A DNA stretch of 64,000 nucleotides from assembly GCA_965248445.1 (NCBI GenBank), contig CBDFJG010000004.1:32001-96000 (forward strand), written 5' to 3'. Origin of the DNA: Planctomycetota bacterium. Lineage in GTDB: Bacteria > Planctomycetota > JAJSAM01 > JAJVHW01. Within the stretch, counting starts at the first letter, position 1. The number at the start of each line of letters is the position of its first letter. The notes below the pieces were generated by a model. It searched no databases. It was given only the letters and a program-made list of their open reading frames with translations, and had not been told where the DNA came from. The position numbers and the translations under genes are program-made. Below, in pieces: positions 51,300-60,471 of this stretch.

Positions 51300-52342
51300 C
51301 ATGCATATCCGGTTAATGACCGCGCCCACTACATCTTGTGCTAGAAGGGCAGCGGGCTTGCAGGCTCGTCGGCGTAGACCTGTTCGTACGTGCGCGGCGG
51401 CGTCTTCGCCGCGATGCCGAGGACCGTCTGGAACGCTGCCTGCGGCGTGCGTCTCCTGTTGAACCGGAACGTGAACTCGTCGAGATACCGCTGCAGGTGC
51501 TTCTTCGAGACCCGGCCGTGGTGCGTGCCTACGAGCCAGGTCTTGAGGTTGGAGAAGACCAGGTGCAGGTGCCTCAGGACGTCCGCCTGCGCCGCGCCCA
51601 TCATCGTGGACTCGATCCCGTGCTCGTAGCCGAGTTTCTCGACTGCGTCGTAGGTCTCGTGGCCGTCGGTCACGACGAGCGCCCCACGCTCGATGCTGTC
51701 CTTGACGAACGCCAGCAGGTGCGGCTTCGATGAGGCCGGCACGTGGCGCAGCCGGATGCGTCCGGGCTGTGTGCCTCTCTTCGTCGGACGCACCTCGACC
51801 GCGCCGACCACGACGGCCTTGTCTGCCGCGGTGCGCTCCTCTCGGCCTCGAAACGGCGCTCCGATCAGCGCCTCGTCGACCTCGACGACGCCGAACAACT
51901 GCGCGCGCTCCGGCGCGACCATCGCAGATCGCAGTTTCTGGAGCATCTGGTACGCGGTCTCGTAGCGGGTCAGACCGAGCTGTCGCTGGAGTGCGAGCGC
52001 AGAGACGCCCCGCTTGTCCGTCGTCATCAAGTACGCGGCCCACATCCAGGACTTCAGCGGCAGCCGGCTGCGATGCAGCACTGTGCCCGCGGTGACCGAC
52101 GTGATCAGGTCGCAGCCCACGCACCGCATCGCTCTTCGATCTGGACGGGGCCAGTACTTCTTGCCGCCGCACCGGCGGCAGCGGAACCCGTCGGGCCAAC
52201 GACACTGCACGAGGTACTCGAGGCACTGCTCTTCCGTCGCGAACTGCTCCGTGAACTCCACGATGTTGCGAGGGTAGCCCGGCTTCGGCATGCGTCCGAG
52301 ACACTACCCCTTGGGGTCACGGTCGTCAACCGGATATGCATG
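51300..52342 (-). mobile_element. IS1595 family, ISSod11 group, copy A (1043 bp)
   Basis: IRs CATGCATATCCGGTT(A/G)A(T/C)GACC. Flanks CCTTCAGG and GTTTGGAC do not match. Confidence 0.93.
51341..52291 (-). CDS. IS1595-family transposase
   Basis: Zn ribbon, GVSALALQRQLG, EVDE, TDG...Y, YLDEFTFRFNRR. Confidence 0.95.
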   Translation of the reverse strand: MPKPGYPRNIVEFTEQFATEEQCLEYLVQCRWPDGFRCRRCGGKKYWPRPDRRAMRCVGCDLITSVTAGTVLHRSRLPLKSWMWAAYLMTTDKRGVSALALQRQLGLTRYETAYQMLQKLRSAMVAPERAQLFGVVEVDEALIGAPFRGREERTAADKAVVVGAVEVRPTKRGTQPGRIRLRHVPASSKPHLLAFVKDSIERGALVVTDGHETYDAVEKLGYEHGIESTMMGAAQADVLRHLHLVFSNLKTWLVGTHHGRVSKKHLQRYLDEFTFRFNRRRTPQAAFQTVLGIAAKTPPRTYEQVYADEPASPLPF

Positions 52343-53672
52343 GTTTGGACCCGGTGCACGTTGAGGCATCCGCTCGAGGACGACGCTGCCATCAGTTACG
52401 CGGCCTCAGCTTGCGCTGGGCCCGTTCAGCCACCGCAGTCGCCGCACCTTCGAGTTGGGAGATGGGCATCGCCCGCGTAGGCGCGTTGCTCGGTCGATCA
52501 GGCTCCCGTGTTGTTCGTGGTGTTCAGTCGGTCATCACGCCGCTCGAGCGAGCGGCTCGTACGCGCGGTCCTTCGTCCAGAGCGCGTGGAAGAGTACGGC
52601 GAGCTTGCGGGCCACCGCGACGGTCGCCCGCTTCTTCGCGTTCTTCCCGCCGCGCTCCGCCAGTGCCAATCCCCAGCGTCTCACGTCGCTGTCGGGCCCA
52701 TGCGGCCCGAGCACGTAGTGCGCGCACTGCACGAGCAGGCGGCGGAGCATTCGATCGCCACACTTCGTGATCCTCAGCTGTCGGTCGATCTTGCCCGACT
52801 GGTCCTGACGCGGCACCACGCCGATGTACGCTCCCACGTCGCGACTGCGGGAGAAACGCCCCGGGTCGTGGATGACGAGCACGTAGGCCAGCGCGGTCAG
52901 CGGCCCCACACCGGCGACCTGGCGCAGACGCTTCGTCATCGGATAGACCTCCTGGCAGAGTCGCGCGACGTGCTCGTCGTAGCGATCGATCGTCTTCGTG
53001 AGAGACTCGATCGCGTCCAGCAGTGGAGTCAGCGCGTCCCGCAGGACCTCGGGCACGGACTCGCGCACCCGCCGGTGGAAGCTCCTCGCAGAGCACGACG
53101 GCAGTCGATGCCCCAGCGACTTGACGGCGCCGCGTGCGGCATTCACGAGTTTCGTGCGCGCAGAGACCACGCGCTCCCGCGCGCGCAGCAGCGCCATGTC
53201 GGCCTGCATGGACTCGCCCCGGTGGACCACCGGATGCAGCAGGCCGGGATGCCCCGCACCGAGCTGCGCCAGCACCAGTGCGTCGCGCCGATCCGTCTTC
53301 TTCGGCGAGTCCCAGATCGCTCGCAGCCGTCGCGCGTCCGCCACGATCACGTCGTGGCCGTGGGACGCGACCAGCCGGCTGATCCACGGAGAGTGCGTCC
53401 CGCTCTCCATCACCACCTTGGACCGCTCCGTCTGCTCGAAGAACTTGCCGAGCGCCTTGCGTGTCGCCCCGACCCGTCCCTCCCCGACGACCTCCCCCGT
53501 CTTGCGGTCGAGCATGCAGACATGCACCACGCGATCACCCAGGTCCATCCCGATCACGAAACGTGTAGCCTTTGCCATAGCCGGTTCCTCCTCGGGCTCG
53601 CAAGCCCGTCAGCGCCTCTGGAAACCGCTACGGGTTACACCGAGGCAGGGACCGGCCTTCTTGTATGACGTC
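52343..53672 (-). mobile_element. IS110-family element of IS1111 type (short 5' end, long 3' non-coding region cut by IS1595 copy A)
   Basis: About 95 nt upstream and at least 190 nt of structured sequence downstream of the recombinase gene. Left boundary approximate. Confidence 0.75.
52535..53578 (-). CDS. IS110-family recombinase/transposase
   Basis: IGMDL, VMES, KTDRRDA, GVGPLTA, GVVPRQDQSG, ITKCGD, VAVARKL. Confidence 0.95.
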   Translation of the reverse strand: MAKATRFVIGMDLGDRVVHVCMLDRKTGEVVGEGRVGATRKALGKFFEQTERSKVVMESGTHSPWISRLVASHGHDVIVADARRLRAIWDSPKKTDRRDALVLAQLGAGHPGLLHPVVHRGESMQADMALLRARERVVSARTKLVNAARGAVKSLGHRLPSCSARSFHRRVRESVPEVLRDALTPLLDAIESLTKTIDRYDEHVARLCQEVYPMTKRLRQVAGVGPLTALAYVLVIHDPGRFSRSRDVGAYIGVVPRQDQSGKIDRQLRITKCGDRMLRRLLVQCAHYVLGPHGPDSDVRRWGLALAERGGKNAKKRATVAVARKLAVLFHALWTKDRAYEPLARAA

Positions 53673-53676
53673 CACT

Positions 53677-53880
53677 CATGCCCGCGACCTACGGTGGACA
53701 GAGATCGACGAGAGCCGGGAGAGGGTCGCCGCGGCCTTCACGAGGCGCAGTCCTCGGAGATGAGATTGGCGCCCTCGACCGGCGACCCACGCTCGGACGG
53801 GATCCTGAGGCGCGCAGACGCGCGTCCTCGCATGAACAAGGATGAGTACGGTCGCCGGCTCCGAGGCTCCCGGTCCTCCT
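53677..53880 (+). ncRNA. Bridge RNA (target- and donor-binding loops)
   Basis: Guides GGCCTTCAC 53733-41, GAGATGAG 53757-64, GACGGGATC 53796-804, GCATGA 53830-35, each pair flanking an internal hairpin. Transcript ends uncertain. Confidence 0.8.
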
Positions 53881-54924
53881 CGTCGCATGACAGGAGGTGC
53901 ACGATGCGCTACGCGGGGATAGACATCGCTTCGAAGAAGCACGTCGTGGCGGTGATGGACGAGGACGAAGAGATCCTGGTGCGGCCCACCGCCTTCGGTG
54001 AGGACGCACAGGGCTACGAGGAGCTCTTCGAGTTGCTCGGCGTCCCTCGAGACGTGCTCGTGGCCTTGGAGGCGACCGGGCACTACTGGCGCAACTTGGC
54101 GGCGGAGCTTCTCTCGCGCGGTTTCGCCATGGTGCTGATCAATCCGCTGCGGACCCACCGCTTCGCCGGCGAGGACCTGCAGCGGACCAAGACCGATGCC
54201 ATCGACGCCCTCGGGCTCGCCCGGTTCGCTCGCCAGAAACGCCCGGAGCCCACGCGGCTGCCCGACTCCGGCACCGAGGAACTGCGCGAGCTCGTCAGAC
54301 TCAGGGATCGCGTGGTCCAGGACTTTGGAGACCGGGTCCGCCGGCTTCACCGCTTGGTGGACCTGGGTTTCCCGGAGTTCACACGCCACGTCCGCACCCT
54401 CGACAGCGAACTCGCCACGGCGCTGCTCAACCGCCATCCCACCGCGCAGGCCTTTGTGGGTGTCTCGGTCAAGCGACTCGCCGCGCTCCATTACGACGGA
54501 CGTCACCGAGTCGGGCGGCAGCTTGCCCAAGACCTGGTCCGTGCAGCCAAGTCGTCCGTGGGCCGCCACCACGCCGAGGCCTATCGCACTCAGGTCCGGT
54601 ACGCCTGCGAGGATCTGGACTTGCTGCGCCGGCGCCTTCGCGACTTGGAGAAGCTGATCGGGGGAACCCTGGAGCACCACGAGGTCGGCAAGCTCCTCAC
54701 GACCATCGACGGCATCGGGCCACAGACCGCCGCGCGGCTCGTCGCGGAGCTGGGCGACATCACTCGTTTCCGCGACGCCAAGGCGCTGGCGTCATACATC
54801 GGGGTCGTCCCGGCACTCAAGCAGTCCGGACGCAACCAGGGCCAACGCGCCGCCATCACCCGCATCGGGCACGCCCGGCTGCGCAGGGCCCTGTGGATGC
54901 CCGTCCTGACCGCGGTGCGCAGGA

Positions 54925-55967
54925 CATGCATATCCGGTTGACGACCGTGACCCCAAGGGGTAGTGTCTCGGACGCATGCCGAAGCCGGGCTACCCTCGCA
55001 ACATCGTGGAGTTCACGGAGCAGTTCGCGACGGAAGAGCAGTGCCTCGAGTACCTCGTGCAGTGTCGTTGGCCCGACGGGTTCCGCTGCCGCCGGTGCGG
55101 CGGCAAGAAGTACTGGCCCCGTCCAGATCGAAGAGCGATGCGGTGCGTGGGCTGCGACCTGATCACGTCGGTCACCGCGGGCACAGTGCTGCATCGCAGC
55201 CGGCTGCCGCTGAAGTCCTGGATGTGGGCCGCGTACTTGATGACGACGGACAAGCGGGGCGTCTCTGCGCTCGCACTCCAGCGACAGCTCGGTCTGACCC
55301 GCTACGAGACCGCGTACCAGATGCTCCAGAAACTGCGATCTGCGATGGTCGCGCCGGAGCGCGCGCAGTTGTTCGGCGTCGTCGAGGTCGACGAGGCGCT
55401 GATCGGAGCGCCGTTTCGAGGCCGAGAGGAGCGCACCGCGGCAGACAAGGCCGTCGTGGTCGGCGCGGTCGAGGTGCGTCCGACGAAGAGAGGCACACAG
55501 CCCGGACGCATCCGGCTGCGCCACGTGCCGGCCTCATCGAAGCCGCACCTGCTGGCGTTCGTCAAGGACAGCATCGAGCGTGGGGCGCTCGTCGTGACCG
55601 ACGGCCACGAGACCTACGACGCAGTCGAGAAACTCGGCTACGAGCACGGGATCGAGTCCACGATGATGGGCGCGGCGCAGGCGGACGTCCTGAGGCACCT
55701 GCACCTGGTCTTCTCCAACCTCAAGACCTGGCTCGTAGGCACGCACCACGGCCGGGTCTCGAAGAAGCACCTGCAGCGGTATCTCGACGAGTTCACGTTC
55801 CGGTTCAACAGGAGACGCACGCCGCAGGCAGCGTTCCAGACGGTCCTCGGCATCGCGGCGAAGACGCCGCCGCGCACGTACGAACAGGTCTACGCCGACG
55901 AGCCTGCAAGCCCGCTGCCCTTCTAGCACAAGATGTAGTGGGCGCGGTCATTAACCGGATATGCATG
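54925..55967 (+). mobile_element. IS1595 family, ISSod11 group, copy B (1043 bp) with 8-bp target duplication
   Basis: GCGCAGGA at 54917-24 and 55968-75; inverted twin of copy A. Confidence 0.97.
54976..55926 (+). CDS. IS1595-family transposase
   Basis: Protein identical to 51341-52291. Confidence 0.95.
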   Translation: MPKPGYPRNIVEFTEQFATEEQCLEYLVQCRWPDGFRCRRCGGKKYWPRPDRRAMRCVGCDLITSVTAGTVLHRSRLPLKSWMWAAYLMTTDKRGVSALALQRQLGLTRYETAYQMLQKLRSAMVAPERAQLFGVVEVDEALIGAPFRGREERTAADKAVVVGAVEVRPTKRGTQPGRIRLRHVPASSKPHLLAFVKDSIERGALVVTDGHETYDAVEKLGYEHGIESTMMGAAQADVLRHLHLVFSNLKTWLVGTHHGRVSKKHLQRYLDEFTFRFNRRRTPQAAFQTVLGIAAKTPPRTYEQVYADEPASPLPF

Positions 55968-56407
55968 GCGCAGGAACCCCTGGCTGCGCGCCTTCTACGA
56001 ACGGCTTCGGTCCCAGGGCAAGCTCCCGAAGGTCGCCCTCGTCGCGTCCATGCGAAAGCTCCTGGTCGCCGTCCACTGGGTGGCTCGAAACAAACAGCCC
56101 TTCGTCCCCCGGCCCACACCCGTGGCCACGTCGGCCACGCAGGTGCCCGCATGAGCCACGAGTCTTCCGAGCGAACTCGCGCGCGCTCCGCCGCCCCGGA
56201 TTCATGCCCGAGCCGACAGGCGAAGGCGTCGCACCACCCAACCTGTCCTCGCGGCCCGCCGAGCGCGGTCCCCGCGCGCAGGCGAGGCGGGCAGCGCCAA
56301 CAACGCTCTAAGAACCTTGGTCGAGAAGACGGGATCTCATCTCATCAGGTACTCCTCAAGATCGTCGAGCGAAAGCTCTTCGGGTAGGCGAGACGGTAGA
56401 CCCAGGT

Positions 56408-57291: not shown

Positions 57292-58054
57292 GTACCCGTT
57301 CACGCCTTCGTCCTGAGCCCGGATCCAGCCATCGGCGCTGGCGGTCGATCAAGAGGGTGTGGGCGAAGATCTTCCCAGCGATGTGGCGGAGCTGCGCGAG
57401 CTCGTCGGTCGCCTGCTGCGTCGCATCGCCGAGCTCGAGGGTCGAGAGCGCCAGCACTTGCGGCGCATCGGGCGCATCGAGCAGCTGGAGTCGCGCCTCA
57501 GGCGCGACTCCAGCACGTCCTCACGCCCTCCGTCGAGTGACGCTCCGTGGTCCAAGCGCCGCGGCCATCGCCGTCCGCCGTCTGGCAAGAAGCAGGGCGC
57601 TCAGCCCGGCCATCCGGGCAAGACGCGCAACCTCGTCGATCCAGGCGACGTCGATGAGATCGTCAACCACGAGCCGAGCGCGTGCCGCACATGGGGACAC
57701 GACGAGCTCGTGGACAGCGATCTTGCGCCTCGCCGCCACCAGGTGACCGAGATCTCGCCGCTCTTGGCGACGATCACCGAGCACCGCCTACACGGGCGGC
57801 TCTGCCGGCACTGCGGCGACGAGGTCTTCGCCGATCTGCCCGAAGGCGTGTCCCCCAGCGCCTTCGGGCCGCGGCTGCAGGCTCTGGTCGTCACCCTCGT
57901 GGCCGCCTACCAGCTGAGCCGTTCCGAGGCGGCACGTCTGCTCTCCGAGGCCTTCGACGTGAAGATCTCGGTCGGCAGCGTCAGCAACATCGAGCGGCGG
58001 ATGTCCCGGGCGCTCGAGGCCGCGTTCGAGCGGACGCTTGAGCCGTTGCGCGGG
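57292..58054 (+). mobile_element. IS66-family remnant: left IR plus the N-terminal half of the transposase (from 57359)
   Basis: GTACCCGTTCACG; DSSTSSRPPSSD, GAQPGHPG, RRHQVTEI, CRHCG, FGPRLQA. No DDE region. Confidence 0.85.
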
Positions 58055-58055
58055 A

Positions 58056-58308
58056 CCGCTGCACTATCGCTGCACAACGTCCGCCCGCTCCTGCGGCTTG
58101 TGCGGCTTGTGCAGCGAGGGGCACGCGTAAGTCCTTGCTGGACAACGATCTCTCGTTGCTTCGGGAGCAAGAGGCCGGAGGTTCAAATCCTCTCGCCCCG
58201 ACCACTTGTAACCATTGCCGCACGAGCGAGTTACGGCGACTTCGCGCGCCCCATTCGGACCCCGCGTTTCAGGCCGATTCCGGCTACCGCTGCACTACCG
58301 CTGCAGAT
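58056..58308. repeat. Arm-type repeats (YCGCTGCACWA) on both sides of the tRNA fragment
   Basis: 58056-66, 58067-77, inverted 58107-17, 58287-97, 58298-308. Confidence 0.75.
58156..58204 (+). other. 3' fragment of tRNA-Pro(CGG), an att core
   Basis: Anticodon loop TTCGGGA, T-arm GGAGGTTCAAATCCTCT, CGCCCCGACCA end. No D-arm or 5' acceptor strand upstream. Confidence 0.9.
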
Positions 58309-58398
58309 CGTCACGCGACCGACGGGAGCGATCGACGCTGTGAGGTGGCGCTCTCCGTCGTCGGCGTCGCACAGGGGGCGCCCGTTACGATGGGGGGC

Positions 58399-58526
58399 AT
58401 GGCGACGCATCCCTTCTCGATCGGCGAACTGGCCCGAGCCGTGGGCGTCCCGACGTCCACGCTGCGCTACTCCGAGCGCGCGGGCATCCTGCGGCCTACG
58501 GGTCGGACCGGGGCGAACTACCGCCA
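58399..58526 (+). pseudogene. MerR-family regulator, HTH only
   Basis: FSIGELARAVGVPTSTLRYSERAGILRP..RT.ANYR, then similarity stops. Confidence 0.85.
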
Positions 58527-58550
58527 GAGAACACCAGGAACCCGACTGCC

Positions 58551-58868
58551 ATGCTGAACCTCCCCCCAATGGGCCGTGCTCACGACCCTGCTCCTGGCTT
58601 CGGTCGCTGCCACCGTTGGACTCGCCTTCACCTCAGGCGAGGTGTCGGCCAACGCAACGGACACCGTCATCTGCCCGCAGACCGGCGAAGAGATCTCCCA
58701 GGACGACTGCCCGCTCGTCGATGCGACTCGCCCGGACTGCCCTGGGAAGATCGAGTGCCCTGTGACCGGCGAACTCGTCTGCCGTGACCGCTGGACCGCT
58801 GCCCGCTGGAGGCCGAGGCTCAGGCAGCAGGGGCCGACGACGTCCCTGCGTGCTGCAAGCAGAAGTGA
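58551..58868 (+). pseudogene. Small secreted Cys-rich protein with two frameshifts
   Basis: Extra C in the C6 run at 58562-67 and an 8-bp tandem duplication at 58786-801. Repair gives MLNLPQWAV...CPQTGE..CP..CPG...CPVTGE..CRDRCP...CCKQK. Confidence 0.65.
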
Positions 58869-58883
58869 TCCGACGAGGGGCGC

Positions 58884-60104
58884 TCAGCTCACCGGCGGGG
58901 TTTCCGCGAAGTCGAGCGCCATGACGGCCGCCCTGCGCCGTTTCGAGAGCGCGCTCGCGTAGACCTGGGTCGTCGCGAGCTCGGCGTGGCCGAGCTGCTG
59001 CTGGAGGTCGGTGACCGCGCCGCCGTTCTGGAGGAAGTGGGTCGCGAAACTGTGGCGCAGCGAGTGGGGCGTCAGCCCCTTGCGGCCACCCAGCCCGGCG
59101 GCCTTCAGCGCCAGTTCCCACGACCGGCGGATCTCAACGAAGGGCGTCCCGCGGGTCGAGAGGAACACATGGTCGTCCGGCGAGACGTTCGGTCGCTCGT
59201 CCCGCAGTCGCTCCAGTTCCCCGGCCACCGCGCCGTGCAGGTCGAGCAGGTCGGCGGTCCCGGTCTTCGGCCGGTAGAGCGAGATCTTCGCGTCGGTGAA
59301 GTCGATGTCCGACCAGCGAAGTGCCGTGAGCTCACCCTTGCGCGCACCCGTGTAGATGGCGGTCAGGAGGAAGGGCCGGAAGTGCTCGGGGCAGTTGGTG
59401 ATGAGCGCGCCGAGTTCCTTCTTCGTCAGGTAGCGCCGCGGACGGCGCGTCTCGCGCAGCTTCTTGATGCCGGCGAGCGGGTTGGCGTCGAGGTGCCCGT
59501 CGAGCACGGCCTCGTTCAGGATGCGGATGACGCTCTGCTGGTCGGCGTTCAGCGTCCGTGGGCTGACGGTCGTCTTCTTCCCGTAGGACGAGTTCCGGGT
59601 CGTCGCGCGCCAGGCCCGGTAGTCCAGCCAGCGGGCAGGCGTGATCTCATCCAGCCGCACGGCCCGCTGGCCGTCACGCTCCCCGAAGTACTCGGTCCAA
59701 GCCCGAAGTGCCGCGCGGTAGACACCCATGGTCCCCTTGGCCAGGACCGGCTCGAAGCGGCGCTCGATCACGTCCTTGGCGTAGCCGACCAGCGTGGGGA
59801 CGTCGCGTGGGGCGCTCTCGACGCTGGCCTGGACGGCGCGCTCCTGCGCCTCCGAGAGGGTAGGCGGGACCTCGTAGGCCTCGGCGAGGATGCGCTTCTC
59901 CACCTCGTCGAGGAAGTCCTTGGCCTCCTTCTCCGTGTCGAAGGCCCGGGTCAGCCAGCGCCGCTCAGTCCGGCAGAACCACTTGGCCGACCAGGTCCGG
60001 CGGCCCGACCCCCACTTGCGCGAGTAGATGCTGCCGAAGCGGCGCTTGCGCTTGCCGCGCCGGCGGTTCGCCGGGGGCTCCTTCGTTCTCGTTTCTGCTT
60101 CCAC
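58884..60104 (-). CDS. int: Tyrosine recombinase/integrase with an N-terminal arm-binding region
   Basis: FGSIY..W, TGARKGEL, KTG, HSLRHSFAT, LGH....TQVY. Confidence 0.94.
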   Translation of the reverse strand: MEAETRTKEPPANRRRGKRKRRFGSIYSRKWGSGRRTWSAKWFCRTERRWLTRAFDTEKEAKDFLDEVEKRILAEAYEVPPTLSEAQERAVQASVESAPRDVPTLVGYAKDVIERRFEPVLAKGTMGVYRAALRAWTEYFGERDGQRAVRLDEITPARWLDYRAWRATTRNSSYGKKTTVSPRTLNADQQSVIRILNEAVLDGHLDANPLAGIKKLRETRRPRRYLTKKELGALITNCPEHFRPFLLTAIYTGARKGELTALRWSDIDFTDAKISLYRPKTGTADLLDLHGAVAGELERLRDERPNVSPDDHVFLSTRGTPFVEIRRSWELALKAAGLGGRKGLTPHSLRHSFATHFLQNGGAVTDLQQQLGHAELATTQVYASALSKRRRAAVMALDFAETPPVS

Positions 60105-60201
60105 GTCGTGCTCTCCGGGGCTCGTGCCCCGCAGCAGGCGGAGCACGTGTGGTCCCGATGCACGCTCTTGCGTCCCTGAACATCCAGTACCTTCGACCGG
60201 C

Positions 60202-60471
60202 CTACGCACGGGTATCTCCGAGCAGTCGCGTGACCCGTCCGGGGAGGCCTGCCTTCCGGGTCCTGCGGTCGAGGAATGTGCGGACGTCGTCCGGGCGGAA
60301 GCGCAGGACACGAGGCGCGACGTCGATCGCGGGGAGGGCCGCCTTCTTCGCCAAGCGGTAGACTGTCGTCGTGTCTACAGAGAGGTAGGCGGCCACCGTG
60401 GCGGCATCGACGAGCGGCTCGCCGAACGGCGAGACGGGCGTCGCAGCAGGCAGGCGCATCCGGTCCGTCAC
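60202..60471 (-). CDS. Excisionase-like HTH protein
   Basis: LVDAATVAAYLSV...TVYRL.....LPAI.....LRF. Confidence 0.85.
   Translation of the reverse strand: MTDRMRLPAATPVSPFGEPLVDAATVAAYLSVDTTTVYRLAKKAALPAIDVAPRVLRFRPDDVRTFLDRRTRKAGLPGRVTRLLGDTRA

Follow-up and report, generated by a model that had tools for sequence, protein, structure and literature searches.

Sequence evidence for an IS110-group element with an IS621-type bridge RNA that probably homes to the left end of an IS1111-type element

The closest described systems, IS621 of E. coli and ISCro4/IS622 (PMC11208160; PMC11208158; bioRxiv 10.1101/2025.05.14.653916; PDB 8wt6, 9t56), combine, as far as the available text of these sources goes, a left-end bridge RNA of two loops with a CT core, a discontinuous right donor guide and handshake bases, all of which recur in the element described here. 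The DEDD plus serine catalytic set is also held in common (E 4e-37 and 3e-40). The present element differs from these systems, as given in the same portions of text, in the length of its recombinase (399 aa, against 328-341), in its donor, ACGGGAT-CT-TGTAT, and in a natural right target match that covers the full 7 nt. IS621 and ISCro4/IS622 are there described as targeting REP repeats, whereas the element here appears to target an IS1111-type end. ISEc21 (IS110 group; PMC11187229) has, in the available part of that source, an upstream non-coding guide RNA and a natural target inside other insertion sequences, as here, but its target comprises catalytic-domain codons of IS3-family transposases rather than a sub-terminal repeat.

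In this study, we examine one element in a 64,000-nt stretch of DNA (the window, meaning that whole stretch) from a 5.4-Mb genome of about 69% G+C. Very probably, it is an IS110-group element with a left-end IS621-type bridge RNA and a DEDD/serine recombinase that homes to the left sub-terminal repeat of an IS1111-type element, here called the host; its ends, guides, two-loop structure and insertion site are established at the level of sequence comparison. IS4321 and IS5075 reportedly home to other mobile elements. The locus shares with a known IS110-superfamily element the homing to an end repeat of another mobile element. In contrast to that case, the invader here belongs to the IS110 group and has its bridge RNA in the left end, and the host, of IS1111 type, is also guided by an RNA. 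The mechanism is thus known, as is the targeting of mobile elements, while the choice of an IS1111-type end as target appears to be undescribed. An IS110 element aimed at IS1111 ends was not found in the papers and available supplements searched, and the target string is absent from the available parts of the Durrant target/donor file and of six Siddiquee supplements. With the right-junction pattern, 16 metagenome hits and 2 viral ones were obtained, and no IS110 transposase lay in any of these loci. The left-junction pattern occurred in none of 16 other genomes of the class and in 20 of 400 genomes of the phylum; in none of these 20 did an IS110 transposase lie within about 1.5 kb. Among 29 homolog loci, L031 was the only one with a second IS110 gene close by, arranged in tandem rather than placed at the repeat. 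The element offers a natural bridge system decoded in full, with the correct donor, a perfect target of 14 bp and an intact recombinase of 399 aa whose identity to the solved ones is, by eye, about 30% or lower; because the natural target is another RNA-guided element, IS110/IS1111 competition or hitch-hiking becomes directly testable.

Ends and anatomy of the IS110 element

The element is 1,625 bp long, and the window copy measures 2,676 bp including a nested IS1595 element and its duplication (Table 1). The IS110 gene and the IS110-family gene of the host lie head to head. Four copies are present in the genome: the window copy, intact copies at C4:1972655 and C3:480096, and a copy at C1:584679 with two nested insertions. 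PF01548 gave 8 hits in the genome, 4 per element type, and every IS110 copy abuts a host left end; at the C3 copy, another element interrupts the leader of the host.

Table 1. Coordinates of the IS110 element, its nested insertion and the adjoining host (positions in the window)
Feature	Positions	Strand	Remarks
Target-binding loop in host 3' non-coding RNA	52390..52433	-	two guides spell IS66 terminal repeat
Host transposase, IS110 family, IS1111-type layout, 347 aa	52535..53578	-	right end missing here, beside second IS1595
Host-side flank, inner part of host IS1111-type left end	53579..53659	-	left target CGGCCTT (on +) at 53653-59
Left CT core of IS110 element	53660..53661	+	
IS110 left non-coding end	53662..53903	+	right donor TGTAT 53662-66; bridge RNA
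Candidate -10 box TATGAC	53664-69	+	within IS110 left non-coding end
Target-binding loop of bridge RNA	53721..53776	+	left guide 53732-39, hairpin 53742-55, right guide 53758-64
Target-binding loop handshake bases AT	53765-66	+	53757 also able to pair beside right target guide
Donor-binding loop	53779..53858	+	left guide 53797-804, hairpin from 53807
Donor-binding loop right guide AT[GA]ACAAG	53832-40	+	handshake bases GA 53841-42
IS110 recombinase, 5' part	53904..54924	+	intact form 399 aa
Nested IS1595-family element	54925..55967	+	1043 bp, 28-bp inverted repeats
IS110 recombinase, 3' part	55976..56154	+	identical to intact G000:C4 copy
IS110 right non-coding end	56155..56335	+	left donor ACGGGAT 56329-35; weak -35 box TTGGTC
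Right CT core of IS110 element	56336..56337	+	
Host IS1111-type left end, outermost 10 bases, split off by insertion	56338..56347	-	right target 56338-42

The original prediction, made from the window alone, had placed the left end at 53675, and the sequence upstream of that position is common to all four copies, which at first sight gives it the look of a conserved target. A left core at 53660-61, followed by TGT, is instead supported by 4 of 4 genomic copies, by the empty allele G000:C4:1674409 and by 22 of 24 homologs. The empty allele has the right flank of the filled C1 copy and lacks the 15 disputed bases; the dinucleotide core, which stands at both ends of the IS110 element, occurs in it once. 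Empty relatives of the host likewise read through continuously at the left CT. Since the empty C4 site, the empty host relatives and the homologs that begin CT-TGT agree, the left core was set at 53660-61, and the 15 bases outside the earlier boundary are, by this comparison, part of the IS110 element. Alignment of the flanks of the other copies, proposed at the outset as a check, thus gave a shared core at 53660-61 in all four and not the end first named.

The corrected donor is ACGGGAT-CT-TGTAT and the corrected target CGGCCTT-CT-CATCT. Because the boundary had been drawn 15 nt inside the element, the donor ending CT-CATGC and the target GGCCTTCA-CT- had both been wrongly read, and the junction PCR and reprogramming design built on them rested on wrong substrates; the earlier junction and target strings have no exact match in the genome. 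The decoding of guides from one copy may look convincing yet misplace an end by 15 bases.

The predicted circle junction would set a -10-like box at a distance of 16-18 bases from the -35-like box of the right end. By match to consensus, which is not a measure of function, the corrected junction scored higher in all 24 elements than one placed 15 nt further in (means of 8.2 and 6.5 of 12), and the window element's own corrected junction, at 7 of 12, was weak. A promoter and terminator scan of 53500-53950 returned none. Neither a circle junction nor an excision joint occurred in the contigs of four public runs, and contigs drop rare forms. No long end repeats are listed for the IS110 element and its guide RNA lies upstream of the gene, which sets it outside the IS1111 group.

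In the recombinase, D7, E56, D98, D101 and S308 align with the catalytic residues of IS621, and the profiles PF01548, PF02371 and NF033542 match above cut-off; the protein is predicted to contain a DEDD RuvC-like domain along with a C-terminal domain bearing the catalytic serine. The nested IS1595 reported earlier is real and is bordered by the 8-bp duplication GCGCAGGA (54917-24 and 55968-75), and the IS1595-free joint, from 54916 to 55968, is present in public-run contigs. Removal of the IS1595 and one 8-bp duplication restores the reading frame, as had been claimed, yet the rebuilt gene is not exact: measured against the intact C4 copy, the two pieces of the window copy carry a single difference, at 54490 (A for G), where both intact genomic copies and all four public runs have G. 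The A of the window represents either a private change or an assembly error. With two intact copies in the genome, repair of the recombinase is unnecessary. The intact protein falls in a 90% cluster of only 4 members, and its best plasmid relative is 58% identical.

Guides and structure of the bridge RNA

An alignment of 26 RNAs contains two stem-closed loops with a central hairpin in each, and the conserved stem is GAGGG-CGCC with GGCG-CCCTC. Overall, 96.5% of 1013 cells were paired and 13 of 39 pairs had two-sided change, a level reached by 0 of 500 shuffles, and slid controls gave 38-52% pairing. The tested structure was written from the alignment; RNAalifold on its own recovered most of the helices. 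These data argue for a structured two-loop RNA in the left non-coding end. Both of the internal GAGG/CCTC hairpins first described are present, while the stem proposed to close loop 1, GGGTCGCC/GGCGACCC, is unconserved: 76.9% of its cells were paired, a level that 446 of 500 shuffles equalled or exceeded. The suggested fold of 53677-53880 was unremarkable as a single sequence (z = -1.67), and the suggested comparison with covariance models in Rfam yielded two matches, with E of 1.8 and 3.8, far below the gathering score.

Every motif quoted in the original prediction lies where it had been placed, among them GAGATGAG at 53757-64, the exact reverse complement of 56336-43, and GACGGGATC at 53796-804, identical to 56328-36. 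Of the guides derived from them, the right target and left donor ones were correct, matching those respective positions at 8 of 8 and 9 of 9 bases. The remaining two were replaced. The left target guide, given as 53733-41, is CGGCCTTC at 53732-39, its register shifted two bases upstream, and matches 53653-60 at 8 of 8 bases; the right donor guide is not GCATGA but AT[GA]ACAAG at 53832-40, which pairs with the core plus TGTAT at 7 of 7 positions around a 2-nt bulge. By these matches only two of the four guides first assigned are right, and the corrected guides and the homolog structure support a two-loop bridge RNA of the IS621 type with a CT core. The spacing of the guides at the locus, including the discontinuous donor guide, is that given for IS621 in the available text of PMC11208158, and a discontinuous, 9-nt/7-bp donor guide is described for IS621 in the available text of PMC11208160.

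Homologous elements in other genomes (54-73% protein identity to the IS110 recombinase) were used for a test of guide register in which the ends were placed without use of the target guides. From the 29 loci, 24 were counted; three were unparsed (L038 and L043, with no RNA in the locus, and L041), one had no left flank (L033) and one duplicated another (L040, the same element as L039). The left target guide matched the left flank at 95 of 168 bases in 24 elements (shuffled mean 63.5) and the right target guide matched the right flank at 104 of 115 bases in 23 elements (shuffled mean 64.5), each with 0 of 20,000 shuffles as high, values that are not strict probabilities because the homologs are related and not independent. 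Matching of the left guide is loose, at 57%. The target guides thus appear to covary with the insertion-site flanks across homologs. The left donor guide matched at 174 of 175 bases in 25 elements, and the right donor guide at 7 of 7 in 21 of 24, a count that is partly circular because this guide was used for placing the end. With L033 and L040 included, the first handshake base of the donor loop pairs with position 7 of the target in 24 of 26 elements, and in 23 of 25 the two handshake bases of the target loop pair with the donor; in both counts the predicted handshake bases follow the post-exchange pattern.

In the available part of one Durrant supplement file there are 507 occurrences of the donor class ACGGTAT-CT-TGTA, and that of another has a single donor with the G variant found at this locus. 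Three proteobacterial homologs (L023, L024 and L028) lie in one REP-like repeat, which the left guides match in two.

The IS1111-type left end as target

The host has a short left end, 11-bp sub-terminal inverted repeats and a long 3' non-coding end with guides; the 11-bp repeat is present at both ends in its relatives and also at the C1 right end. By the features of the IS1111 group described in the available text of PMC11208160 and PMC11187229, the host sequence is assigned to that group. In this element, CGGCCTT-CT-CATCT forms the left sub-terminal inverted repeat, so the target is the end of a neighbouring IS1111-type element, a point missed earlier. Among 27 host-family loci in 22 other genomes, 19 left ends were within 2 mismatches of the 14-mer, as against 4 of 27 right ends. 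The genome contains 0 perfect empty targets, 2 sites with one mismatch and 41 with two, and one host-family end with a single mismatch is still empty.

If the element behaves as IS621 does in the available descriptions, it would excise as a circle with the junction ACGGGAT-CT-TGTAT, and this junction would build a promoter. The bridge RNA would pair with both the circle and the target, recombination would take place at CT, and handshake pairing would favour insertion. The target loop appears to be set to the conserved left sub-terminal repeat of the IS1111-type family, and homing into the left end would follow from that setting. The insertion lies in the orientation opposite to the host, 10 bases from its left tip. 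It shortens the host inverted repeat from 11 to 6 bp (5 of 11 bases lost), retains the outer ten bases and the core, and leaves the host gene 1.6 kb from its own junction promoter. Given the shortened repeat and the distance to the promoter, the insertion probably impairs the host, as judged from anatomy only; with its outer ten bases kept, the host might still be able to move with the IS110 element as a passenger.

The IS110 copies are 99.8-100% identical, while their hosts are of two types, 77-81% identical. At the C1 right junction, the IS110 element meets an IS1111 end of a different type precisely at CT, and the empty allele of that end survives. The near-identity of the element in two host types and the different end type in C1 favour at least two separate site-specific insertion events, which are likely on these comparisons. 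On the other side, the four copies agree in every base over about 50 nt of host flank and the window host is a mosaic, so that one insertion could also have spread by recombination, and either recombination or carriage by the host may have increased the number of copies. As for the C1 copy, a hybrid of two flanks, it could reflect a rearrangement or mis-assembly, or could derive from half-match recombination, as set out in the available text of bioRxiv 10.64898/2026.08.31.748434.

It is conceivable, though unlikely, that the guides match but only one or two insertions took place, after which the element spread as IS1111-type cargo or by recombination among host copies. The identical flank, the mosaic host, the fact that the host keeps its core, its outermost 10 bases and 6 of the 11 bases of its repeat, and the outer flanks that vary among copies, as host moves would give, are all consistent with such a history. 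Set against it are the divergence of the hosts around near-identical IS110 elements and the C1 junction with its surviving empty allele; moreover, this history leaves the targeting untouched and changes only the number of events.

An improbable explanation is that the four-fold pairing is in part an artefact of a repeat-rich genome assembly with collapsed or chimeric copies. The genome does contain many near-identical insertion sequences, no public-run contig crosses the whole stretch, and base 54490 is read differently in the public runs. Public-run contigs nevertheless contain both the left and the right junction of the window element, and guide-to-target matching is independent of copy number. 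The left junction is also spanned by contigs of two other studies, in which the coding region has diverged (53607-53953, 6 differences, all from 53900 on; 53605-54140, 22 differences), at low depths of 3.2 and 7.2. Finally, a left core at 53675-76, with a donor ending CATGC and a target beginning GGCCTTCA, is almost certainly wrong, for although GCATGA is the reverse complement of 53676-81 and the left target register first proposed pairs by eye at 6 of 9 bases plus two wobbles, that register matched at 46 of 144 bases in 18 homologs (mean 42.9; 3,358 of 20,000 shuffles as high), and the 15 extra bases contain the -10 box, begin CT-TGT in most homologs and are absent from the empty allele and the empty host relatives.

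An IS66 tier and neighbouring sequences

The host's own guides point to a further level of targeting. In 13 relatives, the 3' guide tracks the left flank at 54 of 78 bases (mean 23.7; 0 of 20,000 shuffles), and in the register of these relatives the guides of the host itself spell GTAAC-(C/T)G-TTCAGCC. The genome has 144 sites within 1 mismatch of this sequence, all of six types resembling IS66-family ends, and about 200 IS66-like end motifs (207 pattern matches). The C1 host (G000:C1:586092-587640) has its right end on an IS66 whose left repeat is without its first five bases, and the outer flank of the window host is GTACC. Since two other host copies stand at a different repeat with a partial match only, the IS66 tier amounts to one clear and one consistent case. 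That the host guides spell an IS66 repeat suggests a three-tier nest. We tentatively propose, at slightly less than even chances, a programmed three-tier parasitism, in which the IS110 RNA would address the IS1111 end and the IS1111 RNA would address IS66, with the top element filling every middle copy and, by silencing or riding it, controlling its spread.

Several further sequences adjoin these elements. A second, identical IS1595 occupies 51300-52342 (minus strand) of the window, at the expected place of the host right end. Orphan host right ends occur at G000:C2:855576 and C3:295664, and an IS66-like end cuts both short. Two copies of a 1375-bp segment, 99.6% identical, lie at G000:C4:1674420-1675794 and C1:579090-580461; at one edge the site is empty in C4 and joined to the IS110 right end in C1, and at the other edge lies a partial IS1595. 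A short repeat with the core ATGCACCAACGC is found at 16 genomic sites (for example C4:1674183 and C3:439518-451849), often clustered, and borders an orphan left end of IS1111 type as well as two copies of the host; the ATGCACCAACGC repeat may be attC-like. To the right of the window element lie a decayed IS66-like remnant (DUF6444; 57359-58765, plus strand) and a tyrosine integrase gene (58884-60311, minus strand).
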